Shown here: piece after piece, positions 3,722-20,600 of the stretch
How the letters are laid out: each line of letters begins with the position of its first letter
How positions within the stretch are numbered: the first letter of the stretch is position 1
Origin: a virus
DNA: 64,000 nt
Direction: 5' to 3' (one strand)
UHGV virus genome: UHGV-1430452
Position numbers and translations under genes: made by a program
Notes under the pieces: generated by a model
Databases searched by the model: none
Seen by the model: only the letters and a program-made list of their open reading frames with translations
Told to the model about the DNA's origin: nothing

Positions 3722-3976
3722 TTACTTGCAATGAAATCCCATTACTACTTTTTCTTCAGATTCATTTTCCTTATTTTCTTCCGGTTCAACTTTGATTTTC
3801 GCTTTCTCGCATACCTCCTGTGCGATTTCGTTACCTTCTTTAGCAGCAAACTTCAATGTACCAAGGCCGATACCTGTAATAACTGCCTGAGCCATTTCCG
3901 CTGCAAACTTACCCATAGCAACTCCAAATGACACTGCAAATGCTGCTTTGCGTAAATCTTTAAATTGTCCATTCAT
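3722..3976 (-). CDS. small membrane-associated protein
   Basis: 84 aa, glycine-rich hydrophobic helices; AGGAGG RBS. Confidence 0.4.
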   Translation of the reverse strand: MNGQFKDLRKAAFAVSFGVAMGKFAAEMAQAVITGIGLGTLKFAAKEGNEIAQEVCEKAKIKVEPEENKENESEEKVVMGFHCK

Positions 3977-5120: not shown

Positions 5121-5230
5121 AATGTTAATCTCCTTTTAAATAAATATAGTTTTTAATGGATTTGATTTAATTGCTGCGTTGGACTTTTGTTTAACTTCCT
5201 CGCATATGATTGCTCCTTTCTTGTGATAGA

Positions 5231-5270
5231 AAAACAAAAAGAGTCTCAACCATAATCGGTCAAGACTCCT
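5231..5270 (-). terminator. intrinsic terminator/attenuator hairpin
   Basis: Minus-strand GGAGTCTTGACC...GGTTGAGACTC + TTTTTGTTTT; near-duplicate of the hairpin at 1644..1690. Confidence 0.5.
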
Positions 5271-5277
5271 TATCTCT

Positions 5278-5305
5278 TCATTAAAGCCGTTGTATTTTTC
5301 GCGAT
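5278..5305 (-). promoter_or_regulatory. conserved early-gene motif copy, here immediately followed by a terminator hairpin
   Basis: ttcattaaagccgttgtatttttcgcga; lies between the stop of 5311..5601 and the hairpin at 5231..5270. Confidence 0.4.
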
Positions 5306-10038: not shown

Positions 10039-10593
10039 CTAAACAAAAGTATCTAAATACCATAACATTTGAATCCAGATTTCAAATTTACGTAAGTCAT
10101 GATCGCAATTCTTAACTCTGAATAATCCACCGCGGCCGTCGGGTTCATATTCACGTTTGAGAAATGTGTTGATCACTTCTCTAACATACTTTTTATCAAA
10201 CCTGGAATCATACATACCGCCCAAACCGAGATTTACGATCATCTTCCAGAACCATTGTCCTGTTCTATCGCCGACACTCGGATCGTCCATAATATCTTCG
10301 CAACGAATTGCAAGAGCTATTATCATTTCTAGGATACTACATGGACGAGATAACATATCGACGATAACTTCTCGGCTTTCAGGGCTGTATATTTCATAAG
10401 CAAACCGACTTCTCAGATTTTCTCCGTCAGTTTCTCTGTTCTCATCTTTTGGGATGCTGTATCTGAATTCAATCTCATGTAAATATTCCAAAAGCTTTTT
10501 ATATGAATTTGCTTTGGCATATCTACCACTGCATACCAGATTATACATCCACTCGAAATATTCTATCTCAATTTCAGTCCTCGTCACCGCCAA
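10039..10593 (-). CDS. hypothetical protein
   Basis: 184-aa ORF. Confidence 0.45.
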   Translation of the reverse strand: MAVTRTEIEIEYFEWMYNLVCSGRYAKANSYKKLLEYLHEIEFRYSIPKDENRETDGENLRSRFAYEIYSPESREVIVDMLSRPCSILEMIIALAIRCEDIMDDPSVGDRTGQWFWKMIVNLGLGGMYDSRFDKKYVREVINTFLKREYEPDGRGGLFRVKNCDHDLRKFEIWIQMLWYLDTFV

Positions 10594-11167
10594 CTACCTC
10601 GCTGTAACTTCCGTAATCTCTAAGGATTTCGTAATATGACTTAAAATTAGGATTTTTGATATACACAGTATCGTCTTCATACTCTCCGAAATGGGAAGCG
10701 AAATCCTCTCCTACCATCTCGTCAATATTACCAATTATTCTGTCACGTTCATCCGCGAGCACTCCATCACCTTCATAATATGTCAGAGTGATCATCGGAT
10801 AATCCTGCTCCCATGTCTCTTCTGGAGCAATTACTTCAGGTCCGCCCATGTCATCTGCTTCCTCCTTTTCTTTCTCTTTCATAGCCTGCTCGTTAATATA
10901 ACCGAGCTCCTGTACTTTATCTCTGATTTCCTGAACAGTAAGTTTATCCGGATTTTCAATACCATCTTTTAAACCTTCCGTTAAAGCCTCTCCAACTTTT
11001 TTACAAGCTTTGCTCTCAGAATAGCGATCCCTAAGGAATTCATTCTCTTCGGTTTTGTCAGCAATGATCTGCTCGTACTTGGTTTTAACTAACTTCCATG
11101 TTACTACCGAACCGATTGCACCTCCAGCTAAGAATATCATTCCTTTAATTAATAAATTCTTGTTCAT
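10574..11167 (-). CDS. membrane-anchored acidic protein
   Basis: N-terminal TM helix (IFLAGGAIGSVVTW) then acidic soluble region. Confidence 0.45.
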   Translation of the reverse strand: MNKNLLIKGMIFLAGGAIGSVVTWKLVKTKYEQIIADKTEENEFLRDRYSESKACKKVGEALTEGLKDGIENPDKLTVQEIRDKVQELGYINEQAMKEKEKEEADDMGGPEVIAPEETWEQDYPMITLTYYEGDGVLADERDRIIGNIDEMVGEDFASHFGEYEDDTVYIKNPNFKSYYEILRDYGSYSEVVGGDED

Positions 11168-15041: not shown

Positions 15042-15869
15042 TTAATAGTAGCTATCGAAACCATATTCCGGAGGCATCAGATGATCAATAACAATACACG
15101 GTTCATTATCTTCCGTAATTTGAGCACTATATCTCACATCGATTTTGCCTTTATCGATTCTCCAACCGATGCTATTACCAACTTCGGTATGCTTAAGACC
15201 AATTTCGTCATAGAAATCATTCAGAGAAATATACATCTCGTTACCGTTGATCATTCTCTCATTAAGAGTAAGAACAGCATTTTTAATCTTGTCGATATCC
15301 GATCTGAAATATCTGTCGGAATGACTGTCATAACACAACGTGTTACCTTTACCTGTCATGATAATCTGAGTGTCTGCAACCGGATGTTCTTCAACTTGCT
15401 TCTTAGCGACTTTATCTCTGATGTTATTTTCCTTCTTCTCTCCGATAGTCTCTACCACTTTCTCTCTGTAGTCAGACAGTGCTGTTGTAGATAACTGATA
15501 TGCTGTTGCCAATGCTGCGTTACGTCTTACATGTACGGAATTAGCACCGATAAGACAAGCGACTGACGCAATGCCAGTGATAGCTGCTGGAATATAAGGT
15601 TTCCAAGCTGCTTTTACTGTTTCGACAGGTGTGAGATTTAAAGCGTTTCTTTCGTCTTCTTCTGTGAAAATACCGCCTTCATGAGCTTCTTTCTCTTTAA
15701 ACTTCTTCTCTTCCTCGATTAACTCCATAGCTTTTGGTGTTGCTTTTACTGCAAGCACAACAGTAGATATCATACCTGCGATACCAATGCCAGTAAGAAT
15801 TTCCGGACTGCGTTTTTTCATTACATATTTTGCAGTGTTTAAAAATTTTGTTACATTTGGTTTGTTCAT
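15042..15869 (-). CDS. membrane-anchored protein, paralogue family member B
   Basis: 275 aa; same N-terminal and central blocks as 12029..12967 and 17330..18106. Confidence 0.5.
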   Translation of the reverse strand: MNKPNVTKFLNTAKYVMKKRSPEILTGIGIAGMISTVVLAVKATPKAMELIEEEKKFKEKEAHEGGIFTEEDERNALNLTPVETVKAAWKPYIPAAITGIASVACLIGANSVHVRRNAALATAYQLSTTALSDYREKVVETIGEKKENNIRDKVAKKQVEEHPVADTQIIMTGKGNTLCYDSHSDRYFRSDIDKIKNAVLTLNERMINGNEMYISLNDFYDEIGLKHTEVGNSIGWRIDKGKIDVRYSAQITEDNEPCIVIDHLMPPEYGFDSYY

Positions 15870-15958
15870 TTTTTATCTCCTTTCATGAACAGTTAAATTG
15901 TTTTTACCAAAAATCCCACTCGGGAAAATTTTGATCTTGAAAAAATAGAAATCGAAAA

Positions 15959-16030
15959 GAAACAGTGTAGGACTCGAACCCACAACCTACAGATATAAGT
16001 CTGTTGCTCTACCAATTGAGCTAACTGTTT
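15959..16030 (-). tRNA. tRNA with non-canonical 6-nt anticodon loop (anticodon unresolved; UAU or UUA are the options)
   Basis: Minus-strand fold: 7-bp acceptor AAACAGT/ACTGTTT, D-arm GCTC-AATTGGTA-GAGC, T-arm GTGGG-TTCGAGT-CCTAC; anticodon stem ACAGA/TCTGT encloses only CTTATA. Confidence 0.6.
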
Positions 16031-16080
16031 CTTCTCATAATAGCGCTTGTAAATTTCGCGAATATAGATCTTCAGAAACA

Positions 16081-17329: not shown

Positions 17330-18106
17330 TCAATACTCTTCGTAATCAATGAACGGCTCTGTGAAATCTACAATATAACATTCAATACCGTCGTCCATTT
17401 CTACTTTTGTATGGTGGAAATATAGCCAACCATCCCAGTACATTTCATACATCTGAGCTGCGGACCAACCCATAAATTCACCGTAATCCTGTCGATCAAT
17501 CTCTAGTAAATCGTAATAATCGTTTAAAGATGCACCACCGGATTGAGATAGCATTTTATTAATCTCATACTCTGCTCTCAATTGAGTTTCTTTCGTCACA
17601 CGGTAATAACGTTTGGAATATTCATCGTAGAATAGTGTTTTGCCATCCTCGTATTCGTCGTCATATTCTTCTTTGTCTTCTTCCTCGTAATGGTCTTTTG
17701 CTACAGCAGCACGAATGAGTTTGTCTCCGTCTTCACCATATAACTTTTTAACTTTGTTTTTGTACTCTTTGTGAGTTTGGTCTAGTAAGGCATAAGCAGA
17801 TGCGATGGCTGCTTGGGAATGTTTGTTTAATAGATTCGCGCCAAATATGCAAGCTAGGGTTCCTGTTCCAATCAATAAGGAAGGAATATATGTTGGTCCT
17901 GCTACTCGAATAGTCTCCCATTTTGTTAATTCATCTCCTTTCTCTTCTTCAGCTAGTTCAATAAGTTCCATTGCTTTCGGAGTAGCTTTAACCGCCATTA
18001 CAGCTGTACCTACCACTCCGGCAGCTCCTAATACTGTTAATATAGTAGAGCTGTTTTTCTTTACGAATCTTTTCGAAACTGTTAGTAAGTCATTCATTTC
18101 CAGCAC
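17330..18106 (-). CDS. membrane-anchored protein, paralogue family member C
   Basis: 258 aa; N-terminal block KKNSSTILTVLGAAGVVGTAVMAVKATPKAMELIE matches members A and B. Confidence 0.5.
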   Translation of the reverse strand: MLEMNDLLTVSKRFVKKNSSTILTVLGAAGVVGTAVMAVKATPKAMELIELAEEEKGDELTKWETIRVAGPTYIPSLLIGTGTLACIFGANLLNKHSQAAIASAYALLDQTHKEYKNKVKKLYGEDGDKLIRAAVAKDHYEEEDKEEYDDEYEDGKTLFYDEYSKRYYRVTKETQLRAEYEINKMLSQSGGASLNDYYDLLEIDRQDYGEFMGWSAAQMYEMYWDGWLYFHHTKVEMDDGIECYIVDFTEPFIDYEEY

Positions 18107-18216
18107 GCTCCTTGGCGATAAATTTGGTAAAAATAAAAAGAGAAAGAAAAGAGTCAGCTTGTTGTGTAAACCAAGTCTAACTCAATTCTTTTTGTCATTA
18201 TCCGAAATAACAATAT

Positions 18217-18246
18217 CCCATAACAGGTGATGTAATTTTCGCGAAT
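18217..18246 (-). promoter_or_regulatory. conserved early-gene motif copy (promoter-like)
   Basis: cccataacaggtgatgtaattttcgcgaat. Confidence 0.45.
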
Positions 18247-18248
18247 CC

Positions 18249-18470
18249 CTACTGCTCAAAAAATAAAACTACATCTACCGGATCTTTGAAGTGCTGCTCC
18301 TCCACTACTTCTTTAAATTCTTCAAATGATTCCGGTTCGTATTCTTGTAAATATAAAATCTGTTCAAGCAATCTTCCGTAAAATCCTTGAGAATTAGATA
18401 GCATTTTTACCACACCAATGACTTGTTCAACATCATAACCGTCTGCTTTCTTTTCCATAGCGTTTGCCAT
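18249..18470 (-). CDS. small acidic protein (start moved to ATG)
   Basis: AAAGGAG RBS 7 nt before the ATG at 18468-18470; the ORF-track start is a GTG upstream. Confidence 0.4.
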   Translation of the reverse strand: MANAMEKKADGYDVEQVIGVVKMLSNSQGFYGRLLEQILYLQEYEPESFEEFKEVVEEQHFKDPVDVVLFFEQ

Positions 18471-18645
18471 TTTGAACACTCCTTTAATTGGTTTTTGATA
18501 AAAATAAAAAGAGAATACAATGACTTCAGGGTCGGCCCAACGAAAACCGTTGCCCGGTGGGTAGCATGTTTTATTACGTTATTACGTGCCGCTACGCCTT
18601 CGTGTCTCACCACTGGATTTCCACCAGTATCTATCCATTGCTTTC

Positions 18646-18675
18646 TCTCATAATAGGTGATGTAATTTTCGCGAA
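18646..18675 (-). promoter_or_regulatory. conserved early-gene motif copy (promoter-like)
   Basis: tctcataataggtgatgtaattttcgcgaa. Confidence 0.5.
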
Positions 18676-18702
18676 TAGAAAAAGAAAATGCCTAGTTTTT
18701 AA

Positions 18703-18966
18703 CTAGACAAATTCTTTAATAATTATTGTTCCACCAACTACATCGATTTTTATTTTATTCATCGCTTTCAACATACTAGCCACTTTTTGCACTGGTAACT
18801 TACTTGTGAAACCATAGAACACCAAGTCGCCCATGGTATATACATGCCCTACTGAATACTTAACTTCAATATCGGCTGTATATTTGCCAAGGCAATCCAT
18901 TGCTCCTAAATTTTTCACAACTTCGTTTTTATTCGCGCATAAAGTAATTTCATATTTAGTAAACAT
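18703..18966 (-). CDS. hypothetical protein
   Basis: 87-aa ORF; AGGAGG RBS. Confidence 0.45.
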   Translation of the reverse strand: MFTKYEITLCANKNEVVKNLGAMDCLGKYTADIEVKYSVGHVYTMGDLVFYGFTSKLPVQKVASMLKAMNKIKIDVVGGTIIIKEFV

Positions 18967-19191: not shown

Positions 19192-19224
19192 TTTAGATTC
19201 CTCCTGTTAAGCAATTTATTATCT

Positions 19225-19255
19225 TTCCATAATAGGACTTGTAATTTTCGCGAAT
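19225..19255 (-). promoter_or_regulatory. conserved early-gene motif copy (promoter-like)
   Basis: tttccataataggacttgtaattttcgcgaa. Confidence 0.5.
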
Positions 19256-20408: not shown

Positions 20409-20446
20409 AGGAAATATAAAAGAAGAAAAAAAAAGAAAAGACTATG

Positions 20447-20523
20447 GGAATAGCGCGGGATTCGAACCCACGACGTTGAGTTTCCTCTTATTCTTCCATT
20501 AGAACTAACCGTCTTAACTATTC
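20447..20523 (-). tRNA. tRNA-like element (good acceptor and T-arm; no canonical anticodon stem found)
   Basis: Minus-strand GAATAGT/GCTATTC acceptor, T-arm GTGGG-TTCGAAT-CCCGC, D-arm-like AGA-CGGTTAGT-TCT; central 29 nt purine-rich with only a short GAG-GAAA-CTC hairpin. Confidence 0.4.
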
Positions 20524-20570
20524 CAGAGACTTCTTCCGATATATTGCTATACGGGAATTGTTCTCTTCTT

Positions 20571-20600
20571 TTCTATAATAGGAAATGTTTATTTAGCGAA
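20571..20600 (-). promoter_or_regulatory. conserved early-gene motif copy, upstream of the tRNA-like element
   Basis: ttctataataggaaatgtttatttagcgaa, ~45 nt from the 5' end of the tRNA-like element. Confidence 0.45.

Follow-up and report, generated by a model that had tools for sequence, protein, structure and literature searches.

Comparison with described phage RNAs

The T4 species 1 and 2 RNAs (rnaC/rnaD) are stable phage RNAs of ~120-140 nucleotides (nt) that are encoded in tRNA clusters and whose function is unknown. Here we analyse an element that can be compared with them, located at positions 18509-18649 on the minus strand of a 64,000-nt stretch of the virus genome UHGV-1430452 (the window); the genes around the element are on the minus strand as well. 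A previous reading of the sequence alone had described a GC-rich, hairpin-dense leader between a recurrent motif and its gene, 18249-18470, here called the 76-amino-acid (aa) gene, and had proposed a cis-regulatory RNA or a small RNA. We favour, with reasonable but not high confidence, the interpretation that the element is a gene of its own, which encodes a stable, structured non-coding RNA of ~135 nt, and not a leader dedicated to the 76-aa gene.

The T4 RNAs and the present RNA are both phage-encoded, co-located and co-transcribed with tRNA genes, and matured by tRNA enzymes, the last two being predictions for the RNA described here. A relationship in sequence or structure is not expected, and they differ in host range, in the pseudoknotted four-way junction, and in the far stronger conservation across phages that is found here. 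GOLLD and ROOL are complex-folded non-coding RNAs of Firmicutes phages and prophages, often encoded beside tRNAs, and their biochemical function is also unknown. However, they have lengths of ~600-800 nt, compared to ~135 nt here, and the element has no match in Rfam, neither at the gathering thresholds nor at E values up to 10. The phi29 pRNA is likewise a phage RNA of ~120-170 nt that is transcribed from an early promoter and has paired 5′- and 3′-ends, and the covarying loop-loop pairs described below could in principle be intermolecular. In contrast to phi29, the missing Rfam match is accompanied by a conventional large terminase and portal, a much larger genome, and an occurrence also in prophages.

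Two further groups share single traits with the locus. At the lambda promoter pR′, a short terminated RNA (6S) is followed by genes that are reached by read-through only, which is the arrangement predicted for the window. The lambda 6S RNA is, however, a by-product of Q-regulated antitermination without a conserved fold, whereas the RNA described here is conserved also in contexts that have nothing downstream in its unit. The P1/P7 c4, P4 CI, MALAT1-mascRNA, and MHV68 tRNA-miRNA units have ends that are set by tRNA-processing enzymes, as they presumably are here, but c4 and CI have ~70-80 nt and act by antisense pairing via exposed loops, and the present RNA matches no Rfam family, including any c4 model that Rfam may contain.

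The sequence-only reading had proposed an Infernal scan against Rfam. With Rfam 15 (4227 covariance models), no match on the element was obtained at the gathering thresholds, and the same was true for the RNA in bacterial and phage homolog loci. At E values up to 10, the element alone and its most divergent homolog retrieved only noise, e.g. a group II intron hairpin that was matched in part with a score of 9 bits. ARAGORN called only the tRNA gene 15958-16031 in the window and not the element. The tRNA model RF00005 matched neighbouring tRNAs, but not the element at E values up to 10, and the cobalamin-class models did not match it at this threshold either. Resemblances to 5S rRNA, RNase P J18/2, the SRP Alu domain, SAM-I, glycine, and hammerhead RNAs were considered and dropped, having no covariance-model support. 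A literature search with sequence strings retrieved only primers for the polymerase chain reaction, and the RNA was not found in 200 of the 408 files of the catalogue of Fremin et al. 2021. No description of the RNA was found; large structured-RNA catalogues from IMG/VR and human microbiomes may contain it. The RNA is a new structured non-coding RNA family that is absent from Rfam, with the proviso that two candidate-RNA catalogues may include it.

Distribution and conservation of the RNA family

The first homologs were obtained from loci around relatives of the neighbouring DUF6353 protein. Scanning with nhmmer revealed the "leader" in five other viral contigs, at varying distances to the anchor genes. 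Blastn searches of the region with near and distant settings against 50,697 GenBank phage records gave no match. Pattern scans yielded 25 + 12 + 3 viral loci and 71 metagenome contigs, mostly with human-gut labels. Seven bacterial genome contigs carry the RNA, all from Oscillospiraceae or Clostridiales, including Clostridiales bacterium CCNA10 (complete genome) and Muriventricola aceti; judging from these chromosomal copies, some of the carriers at least seem to be temperate. The family has a size of ~110 loci from IMG/VR viral contigs, human-gut metagenomes, and bacterial genomes (homologous loci are denoted by L numbers).

The covariance model R1 has only one match in the window (161.7 bits, E = 1.2e-44). 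Each complete copy scored 124-170 bits from end to end, and one copy without its 3′-part scored 88 bits. A wide distribution of the RNA in bacteria was considered and discarded: 13 of the 20 genome pattern matches, from Desulfobulbaceae, Synergistaceae, Alphaproteobacteria, Verrucomicrobiota, and others, are chance occurrences in GC-rich coding sequence and fail the covariance model. L137, L212, and L213 are also chance matches. Scans in which P2-P4 were left unconstrained did not reveal divergent subtypes, and therefore the family is narrow and tight.

The alignment A4 comprises 92 sequences including that of the window, 48 of which are distinct. The mean identity of the core is 91%, and 51 of its 125 columns are invariant, including 24 that are unpaired. 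For comparison, the adjacent DUF6353 protein has identities of 36-56% in most relatives within the same phage group. An RNA that is ~90% conserved next to proteins that are ~40% identical indicates that the fold is under very strong selection. The GC-richness that had been noticed before is indeed conspicuous: the GC content of the core (18509-18649) is 48.2%, compared to 36.1% in the surrounding 8 kb, which places it among the top 0.2% of all 141-nt windows of that region and among the top 1.3% when the whole window is considered.

A covariation analysis in homologous phages, likewise proposed by the sequence-only reading, gave a clear result. In an independent MAFFT alignment of 16 sequences, 96.9% of the cells are paired and 18 of 41 pairs have compensatory changes. 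None of 500 column shuffles reached any of these measures, and slid controls were 30-50% paired. The values for the 48 distinct sequences, whose alignment was fitted to the covariance model and leans towards structure, are 96.7% paired cells and compensatory changes at 25 of 46 pairs; 0 of 500 shuffles were as good, and slid controls were 36-52% paired. On the gene strand, 97.0% of the cells can pair, compared to 85.0% on the opposite strand, and 272 cells are G-U pairs, so the structure belongs to the gene strand.

The homologs of the core differ by insertions and deletions (indels) of 17, 2, 1, and 3 nt. These break the reading frames, and therefore the overlapping open reading frames (ORFs) are not coding. 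An ORF of 68 aa with a GTG start overlaps the core; it has no ribosome-binding site (RBS), as had been stated, and its frame is broken in homologs. The two outcomes named in advance as counter-evidence, i.e. a non-conserved structure or a coding region, were both looked at, and neither was found.

Secondary structure

Covariation supports a fold in which the closing stem P1, the T-loop-like hairpin P2, the long stem P3 with its bulge, and the stem P4 meet in a four-way junction. This fold consists of the following parts:

18635-18646, minus strand: 5′-strand of P1, AGAAAGCAAUGG; 10 of the 12 P1 pairs have compensatory changes
18629-18634, minus strand: junction J1/2, AUAGAU, unpaired and nearly invariant (invariant columns 17-19, 21, and 22)
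18612-18628, minus strand: hairpin P2, ACUGG-UGGAAAU-CCAGU, 100% paired; 3 of 5 pairs have compensatory changes
18556-18611, minus strand: P3, with the base GGUG/CACC, a bulge, the helix GCGUAGCGG/CAUGCUACC, and an optional tip hairpin P3b
18598-18607, minus strand: bulge of P3, AGACACGAAG, invariant, 10 nt; its ACGA (18600-18603) is the predicted 5′-strand of the pseudoknot
18529-18555, minus strand: P4, with a predicted outer helix GGG/CCC and the inner helix CGGUUU/GGGCCG; its loop UCGUU (18539-18543) is the predicted 3′-strand of the pseudoknot
18524-18528, minus strand: junction J4/1, UGAAG, invariant (columns 127-130)
18512-18523, minus strand: 3′-strand of P1, UCAUUGUAUUCU, pairing with 18635-18646

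Three hairpins had been proposed from the sequence alone. All of them can be found in the window, and two of them, ACUGG-UGGAAAU-CCAGU at 18612-18628 and GUAGC...GCUAC within 18560-18597, are conserved with compensatory changes. The third, CAACG-GUUUU-CGUUG, is not conserved and was rejected as a part of the fold, because it is broken in the homologs L001, L040, and L017; the conserved fold has CGG(UUU)/(GGG)CCG and the loop-bulge pseudoknot in its place.

The outer pairs of P1 co-vary with the promoter-proximal purine run of each clade, and P1 therefore seems to be selected to take in the 5′-end of the transcript. P2 is predicted to be T-loop-like by sequence rules. Its 7-nt loop has the consensus UGRRAAU, with the variants UGGAAAU, UGAAAAU, and UGGGAAU, and all 48 distinct sequences have GG-UG(G/A)(A/G)AAU-CC, i.e. 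the loop is closed by a G-C pair, U1 and A5 never vary, and position 4 is always a purine. The P2 sequence GGUG(G/A)(A/G)AAUCC has the pattern of the L4 T-loop hairpin of cobalamin riboswitches, GGUGnnAAUCC, and a four-way junction with long-range loop contacts is also common to both RNAs. However, no cobalamin-class model scores at E values up to 10, the B12-box is absent, and there is no consistent downstream gene. The likeness is a shared building block and does not indicate membership.

The base helix of P3 covaries from GGUG/CACC to GGUA/UACC and AGUG/CACU. A small GUG/CAC hairpin predicted by RNAalifold was replaced by this covarying helix. P3a has five compensatory pairs, among them pair 62-84, which was found in a mutual-information scan. 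The tip hairpin P3b (18576-18587) shows covariation from C-G to A-U and is dispensable, as it is deleted in L040. The inner helix of P4 covaries at two positions, with changes from G-C to A-U in L181, L145, and L166, and in L182. No compensatory change was found for the outer GGG/CCC among the 48 distinct sequences.

Two further pairs from the mutual-information scan connect the bulge of P3 with the loop of P4. Pair 51-109, otherwise A-U, is C-G in L055 and L182, and at pair 48-113, A-U is replaced by G-C in L181 and L040. The resulting pseudoknot would have four pairs (ACGA with UCG-U, 98.9% paired), and the support for it is moderate.

The predicted transcription unit

The transcription unit in the window is predicted to comprise the following elements, from upstream to downstream:

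18689-18709, minus strand: hairpin TGTCTAGTTAAAAACTAGGCA with T-tract TTTTCTTTTT, a terminator-like site that ends the preceding 87-aa gene
18649-18675, minus strand: promoter-like motif TTCGCGAAAATTACATCACCTATTATG, an exact copy of the consensus, 27 nt
18509-18649, minus strand: structured non-coding RNA, full-length match to R1
18497-18511, minus strand: T-tract CTTTTTATTTTTATC abutting P1, a putative intrinsic termination site
18249-18485, minus strand: 76-aa gene with RBS AAAGGAG (18479-18485); the ORF counted from the ATG at 18470 has 73 aa

The motif TTCGCGAAAATTACATCACCTATTATG has 4 copies with three or fewer mismatches, compared to 0 expected by chance, and 11 copies if looser ones are included. 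The distance between the motif and the ATG at 18470 is 178 nt, whereas six other copies are separated by only 22-36 nt from start codons with Shine-Dalgarno motifs, in agreement with the earlier remark that the motif is unusually far from the gene. A short hairpin with a T-tract precedes each motif copy, and a scan found 8 terminator-like sites, compared to 2.0 expected. The site at 18689-18709 probably forms the upstream border of the transcription unit of the RNA. The motif copy 16036-16062 stops 5 nt ahead of the tRNA gene 15958-16031 (minus strand), and transcription should therefore start just past the motif. The motif copies follow terminators and precede RBSs, and one of them is 5 nt away from a tRNA gene; these positions point to a promoter.

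A sigma-70 scan for TTGACA-like and TATAAT-like hexamers at spacings of 16-18 nt did not call the copy at 18649-18675. The sole overlap with a motif copy was a 9/12 match at 19218-19245, with different hexamers. The motif contains TATTAT, and its conserved upstream box TTCGCG is only 14 nt away. A second promoter type, CCGCAGAWTTTGCAAATTCCTTTATGGAG, is used in a sister clade (L084/L085/L090-type loci). The non-canonical motif together with this second type suggests a phage-specific or an unusual host sigma specificity. Ahead of the promoter of the RNA, the sister clade has a perfect 12-nt inverted repeat, TTTCTAACTTAG...CTAAGTTAGAAA, which could be an operator.

At the other end, CUUUUUAUUUUU comes immediately after the 3′-strand of P1 (18512-18523). 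All homologs without a tRNA-like module on the 3′-side have a T-rich run after P1; otherwise, the T-tract follows the module. P1 with the U-tract was not called by the terminator scan, which allowed loops of 3-8 nt.

Genomic context

The comparison of 62 distinct contexts showed that in most loci the RNA comes with a promoter motif and a T-tract of its own. Five arrangements were found:

(a) promoter, RNA, T-tract, new promoter, DUF6353-type gene; the commonest arrangement
(b) promoter, RNA, T-tract, RBS and promoter-less ORF; includes the window, with at least five unrelated ORFs among the phages
(c) promoter, tRNA or tRNA-like element, RNA, T-tract; e.g. L183
(d) promoter, RNA, mini tRNA-like module, T-tract; L082, L138, L145, L147, L166, L174
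(e) RNA, T-tract, promoter, tRNA; L017, L131, L181

In arrangement (b), i.e. the window, L001, L087/L200, L149, L185, and L150/L088/L179, the RBS and ORF follow within ~15-30 nt. The next element after the RNA is, in most relatives, a new promoter, a tRNA gene, or a mini tRNA-like module before the T-tract. In arrangement (d), P1 is away from the U-tract while the core is equally conserved, and therefore termination control is unlikely to be the conserved function.

Mini tRNA-like modules occur directly 3′ of the RNA in L082 (2696-2745), L138, L145, L174, L166, and L147, and directly 5′ of it in L108, L176, L179, and L142. Each is joined to the RNA within one transcription unit and consists of an acceptor stem and a T arm (GGUUCGAnUCC), in some cases with a D arm; the anticodon arm is missing, and neither ARAGORN nor Rfam calls these modules. 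They resemble "punctuation" marks at which RNase P and RNase Z could process the transcript. The borders of P1 coincide exactly with the borders of tRNA-like modules, and in L183 a tRNA recognised by Rfam (10536-10607) abuts the RNA (10608-10748) without a spacer. This would fit a maturation of the RNA by RNase P and RNase Z in these relatives.

The 76-aa ORF has no promoter motif of its own, and its protein has no match in Pfam. Its homolog in L082 is preceded by a promoter, a tRNA-like gene with an 18-nt anticodon loop, and a T-tract, and that in L083 by a promoter motif of its own at a distance of 36 nt. The slot before the 76-aa gene is thus filled by different non-coding cassettes in different phages.

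These contexts separate the two proposals of the sequence-only reading. A cis-regulatory leader of the 76-aa gene was not supported as the conserved role: a promoter, tRNA, or module comes next in most relatives, at least five unrelated ORFs take the position directly downstream among the phages, and the homologs of the 76-aa gene in L082 and L083 occur without the RNA upstream. The small RNA, in contrast, is strongly supported by the conserved structured unit, its own promoter motif, the 3′ U-tract, and the occurrence in many genomes.

Proposed mode of action

If the element is an independent RNA gene, transcription would begin a few nt past the promoter-like motif, and the first, purine-rich bases of the transcript would become the 5′-strand of P1. 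The RNA would then fold into the four-way junction with the T-loop-like loop of P2, and the bulge of P3 would form the pseudoknot with the loop of P4. Last to emerge would be the 3′-strand of P1, which is rich in pyrimidines and would close the molecule just before the U-run, where most transcripts would stop. In the phage represented by the window, a fraction of the polymerases would read through, and this would be the only transcription of the 76-aa ORF, which has no promoter and therefore should depend on terminator read-through. In related phages, tRNA-processing enzymes would cut the RNA from polycistronic non-coding transcripts at the flanking tRNA or mini tRNA-like modules.

The RNA would act early in infection or from the prophage, and it is probably trans-acting, by binding a conserved macromolecule of the host or the phage, or possibly a small ligand. 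The ~24 nearly invariant unpaired nt of the core indicate that the folded RNA itself is the functional product. The junctions and loops are invariant, and no exposed "seed" with variable flanks was found, which speaks for a macromolecule or ligand as the partner rather than for antisense pairing.

Several observations weigh against this interpretation. The transcription unit and the ends of the RNA are predicted here from the sequence. The motif is not a canonical sigma-70 promoter, so its identity as a promoter is circumstantial. P1 is AU-rich and closes a multibranch loop of 110 nt, which is unusual for an efficient intrinsic terminator. The folding energy of the single window sequence is unremarkable and no better than that of shuffled controls (z = -0.86); the claim that the structure exceeds chance is made because of conservation and covariation, the thermodynamics of one sequence proving nothing. 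In the pseudoknot, two positions covary, each of them in about two sequences, while L001 and L145 have single mismatches in it. The trans action is argued by exclusion. Lastly, in the window and several relatives the T-tract is followed by a promoter-less ORF with a good RBS, as would be the case for a cis-acting attenuator.

Alternative explanations

The last point would be explained by a cis-acting riboswitch or attenuator, in which the junction core is an aptamer and a ligand or protein stabilises the weak AU-rich P1, so that the U-tract terminates transcription, while read-through occurs otherwise. A T-loop, a pseudoknot, and 24 invariant unpaired nt represent a complexity typical of aptamers, the 3′-strand of P1 directly abuts the U-run, and the promoter-less ORFs of arrangement (b) follow closely. 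Nevertheless, we regard this explanation as unlikely. The ORFs directly downstream belong to at least five unrelated families, there is no consistent gene, and a new promoter motif intervenes in most loci. In six contexts, a mini tRNA-like module parts P1 from the T-tract, so that P1 is not a terminator stem there, and in other loci a tRNA precedes the RNA within one transcript. No alternative antiterminator pairing was seen by inspection, which was not an exhaustive search. Furthermore, two other promoter-terminator-ORF arrangements in the window (18107-18218 and downstream of 5279-5305, see below) use plain hairpins, and leaky termination therefore looks like a general expression habit of the phage rather than ligand control.

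The four-way junction, i.e. a closing stem and three arms, with a T-loop-type hairpin could also indicate a highly degenerate tRNA or a tRNA-like decoy for tRNA-directed enzymes or defence nucleases of the host. Cassettes are indeed shared with tRNAs and aberrant tRNA-like genes, and the slot is occupied by a tRNA-like gene in L082. But ARAGORN and the Rfam tRNA model are negative, the latter even at E values up to 10, the lengths of arms and junctions do not fit a tRNA, the T-loop hairpin is on the first instead of the third arm, and a CCA or discriminator context is absent, making this explanation very unlikely.

Slightly less probable still is a processive antitermination RNA of the HK022 put or Bacillus EAR type, which would stay on the polymerase and enable it to pass the terminators between small early genes. 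Such a role would fit an RNA located immediately past a strong promoter, in a terminator-dense region (8 sites found, 2 expected) and upstream of an ORF without a promoter. It is hardly reconcilable with the conserved U-tract straight after the RNA and the fresh promoters that follow in most relatives, processing at flanking tRNA-like modules would sever the RNA from the polymerase, and no similarity to an Rfam family was detected at thresholds up to E = 10.

Small ribozymes are abundant in phage genomes, and a highly conserved, pseudoknotted core inside multi-RNA transcripts, with P1 borders that are module borders, could be a self-cleaving ribozyme or another processing element that trims polycistronic non-coding transcripts. 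We give this little credence: the flanking tRNA-like modules already provide RNase P and RNase Z sites, the simplest units (window, L001) need no processing, and neither an Rfam ribozyme match nor a conserved candidate cleavage site outside P1 was found. A chance GC-rich spacer or a small protein gene, for which the unremarkable single-sequence fold and the overlapping 68-aa ORF could be quoted, is refuted by ~110 homologous loci with compensatory changes and frame-breaking indels.

tRNA-like genes and further cassettes

In the phages and prophages with the RNA, tRNA genes are recurrently found whose anticodon loops are abnormal; ARAGORN labels them "tRNA-???" with 2- or 4-base anticodons. Such genes are present in L001 (6243-6316), L121 (6121-6193), and L122 (499-571), and also in L084, L085, L086, L094, L105, L107, L108, L130, L131, L132, and L135. 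The tRNA of the window (15958-16031, minus strand), 5 nt past a promoter motif, has the stem ACAGA/UCUGU and a 6-nt loop, CUUAUA. The loops in L121 and L122 are 6-nt UGAAAU, and the tRNA upstream of the RNA in L183 has the 5-nt loop CCAAA. A tRNA in L082 (3839-3922, Rfam score 37.9 bits), in the slot before the homolog of the 76-aa gene, has an insertion-bearing "anticodon loop" of 18 nt, CGGAAGCCGAUGGUGUAA. The tRNAs with abnormal loops score well in Rfam, yet their loops suggest that they could not decode normally.

The window contains further non-coding units. A second cassette, 20437-20600 (minus strand), has a motif copy at 20574-20600, followed by a structured RNA of ~130 nt and a long T-tract. 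The RNA of this cassette ends with a tRNA-like acceptor, GGAAUAG/CUAUUCC, and a T arm, GUGGG-UUCGAAU-CCCGC, has a fold z-score of -2.94, is homologous to L083 ~3795-3915, and is called by neither ARAGORN nor Rfam. A second long "leader", 18107-18245 (minus strand), has a motif copy at 18219-18245 and two hairpins. The second hairpin, GAGUUAGaCUUG/CAAGCUGACUC, is followed by UUUUCUUUCUCUUUUUAUUUUU and then by the RBS of the DUF6353 gene 17330-18094. The tail TCTCTTTTTATTTTTA is common to this leader and the terminator of the RNA described above. This leader, which is conserved only in the closest relative, L001, could give rise to a short terminated transcript or act as an attenuator. The third promoter-terminator-ORF arrangement is found at ~5205-5305 (minus strand), with a motif copy at 5279-5305 (7 mismatches), a hairpin GGAGUCUUGACC/GGUUGAGACUC, UUUUUGUUUUU, and an RBS.

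Unclassified structured RNAs are located between the promoter and the RNA in L096/L114/L151, L170/L154, L184, L185, and L196. Some of them contain a GGAAAUCC-type hairpin that recalls P2, e.g. GAGGAAAUCCGACGGGUUGUGACC in L096; these modules may be additional RNA families or distant paralogs.

Two paralogous DUF6353 genes, 15042-15869 and 17330-18094 (minus strand; PF19880, E = 4e-89 and 1e-58, respectively), flank the non-coding RNA region, and in relatives, the protein-coding gene found most often downstream of the RNA is of the DUF6353 type. The window also encodes a primase-polymerase fusion, the large terminase, portal, head protease, tail proteins, and an endolysin. Among deposited sequences, the nearest relatives are "Bacteriophage sp." entries from human faeces that carry no annotation.

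Implications

A more speculative reading, which we consider rather improbable, is that the RNA represents a new class of ligand-binding or catalytic RNA in gut phages, with the tRNA-like companions belonging to the same toolkit. It may be a trans-acting orphan aptamer, a riboswitch with P1 as terminator, or a new self-cleaving ribozyme. If this were true, a trans aptamer might soak up a host metabolite or an immune signalling nucleotide, and the tRNA-like genes with 5-, 6-, 8-, and 18-nt "anticodon loops" would be part of a toolkit directed against tRNA-centred machinery or defences of the host.

For the annotation of this phage group, the independent RNA gene that we favour means that "long leaders" are exchangeable non-coding RNA cassettes. 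Phage-encoded structured RNAs of riboswitch grade are rare, and most of them have led to new biochemistry. The RNA is experimentally reachable, because copies are present in cultured strains (Clostridiales bacterium CCNA10 and Muriventricola aceti H5_61). The company of aberrant tRNA-like genes hints at an RNA-based module for host takeover or counter-defence in abundant phages of human-gut Clostridia.

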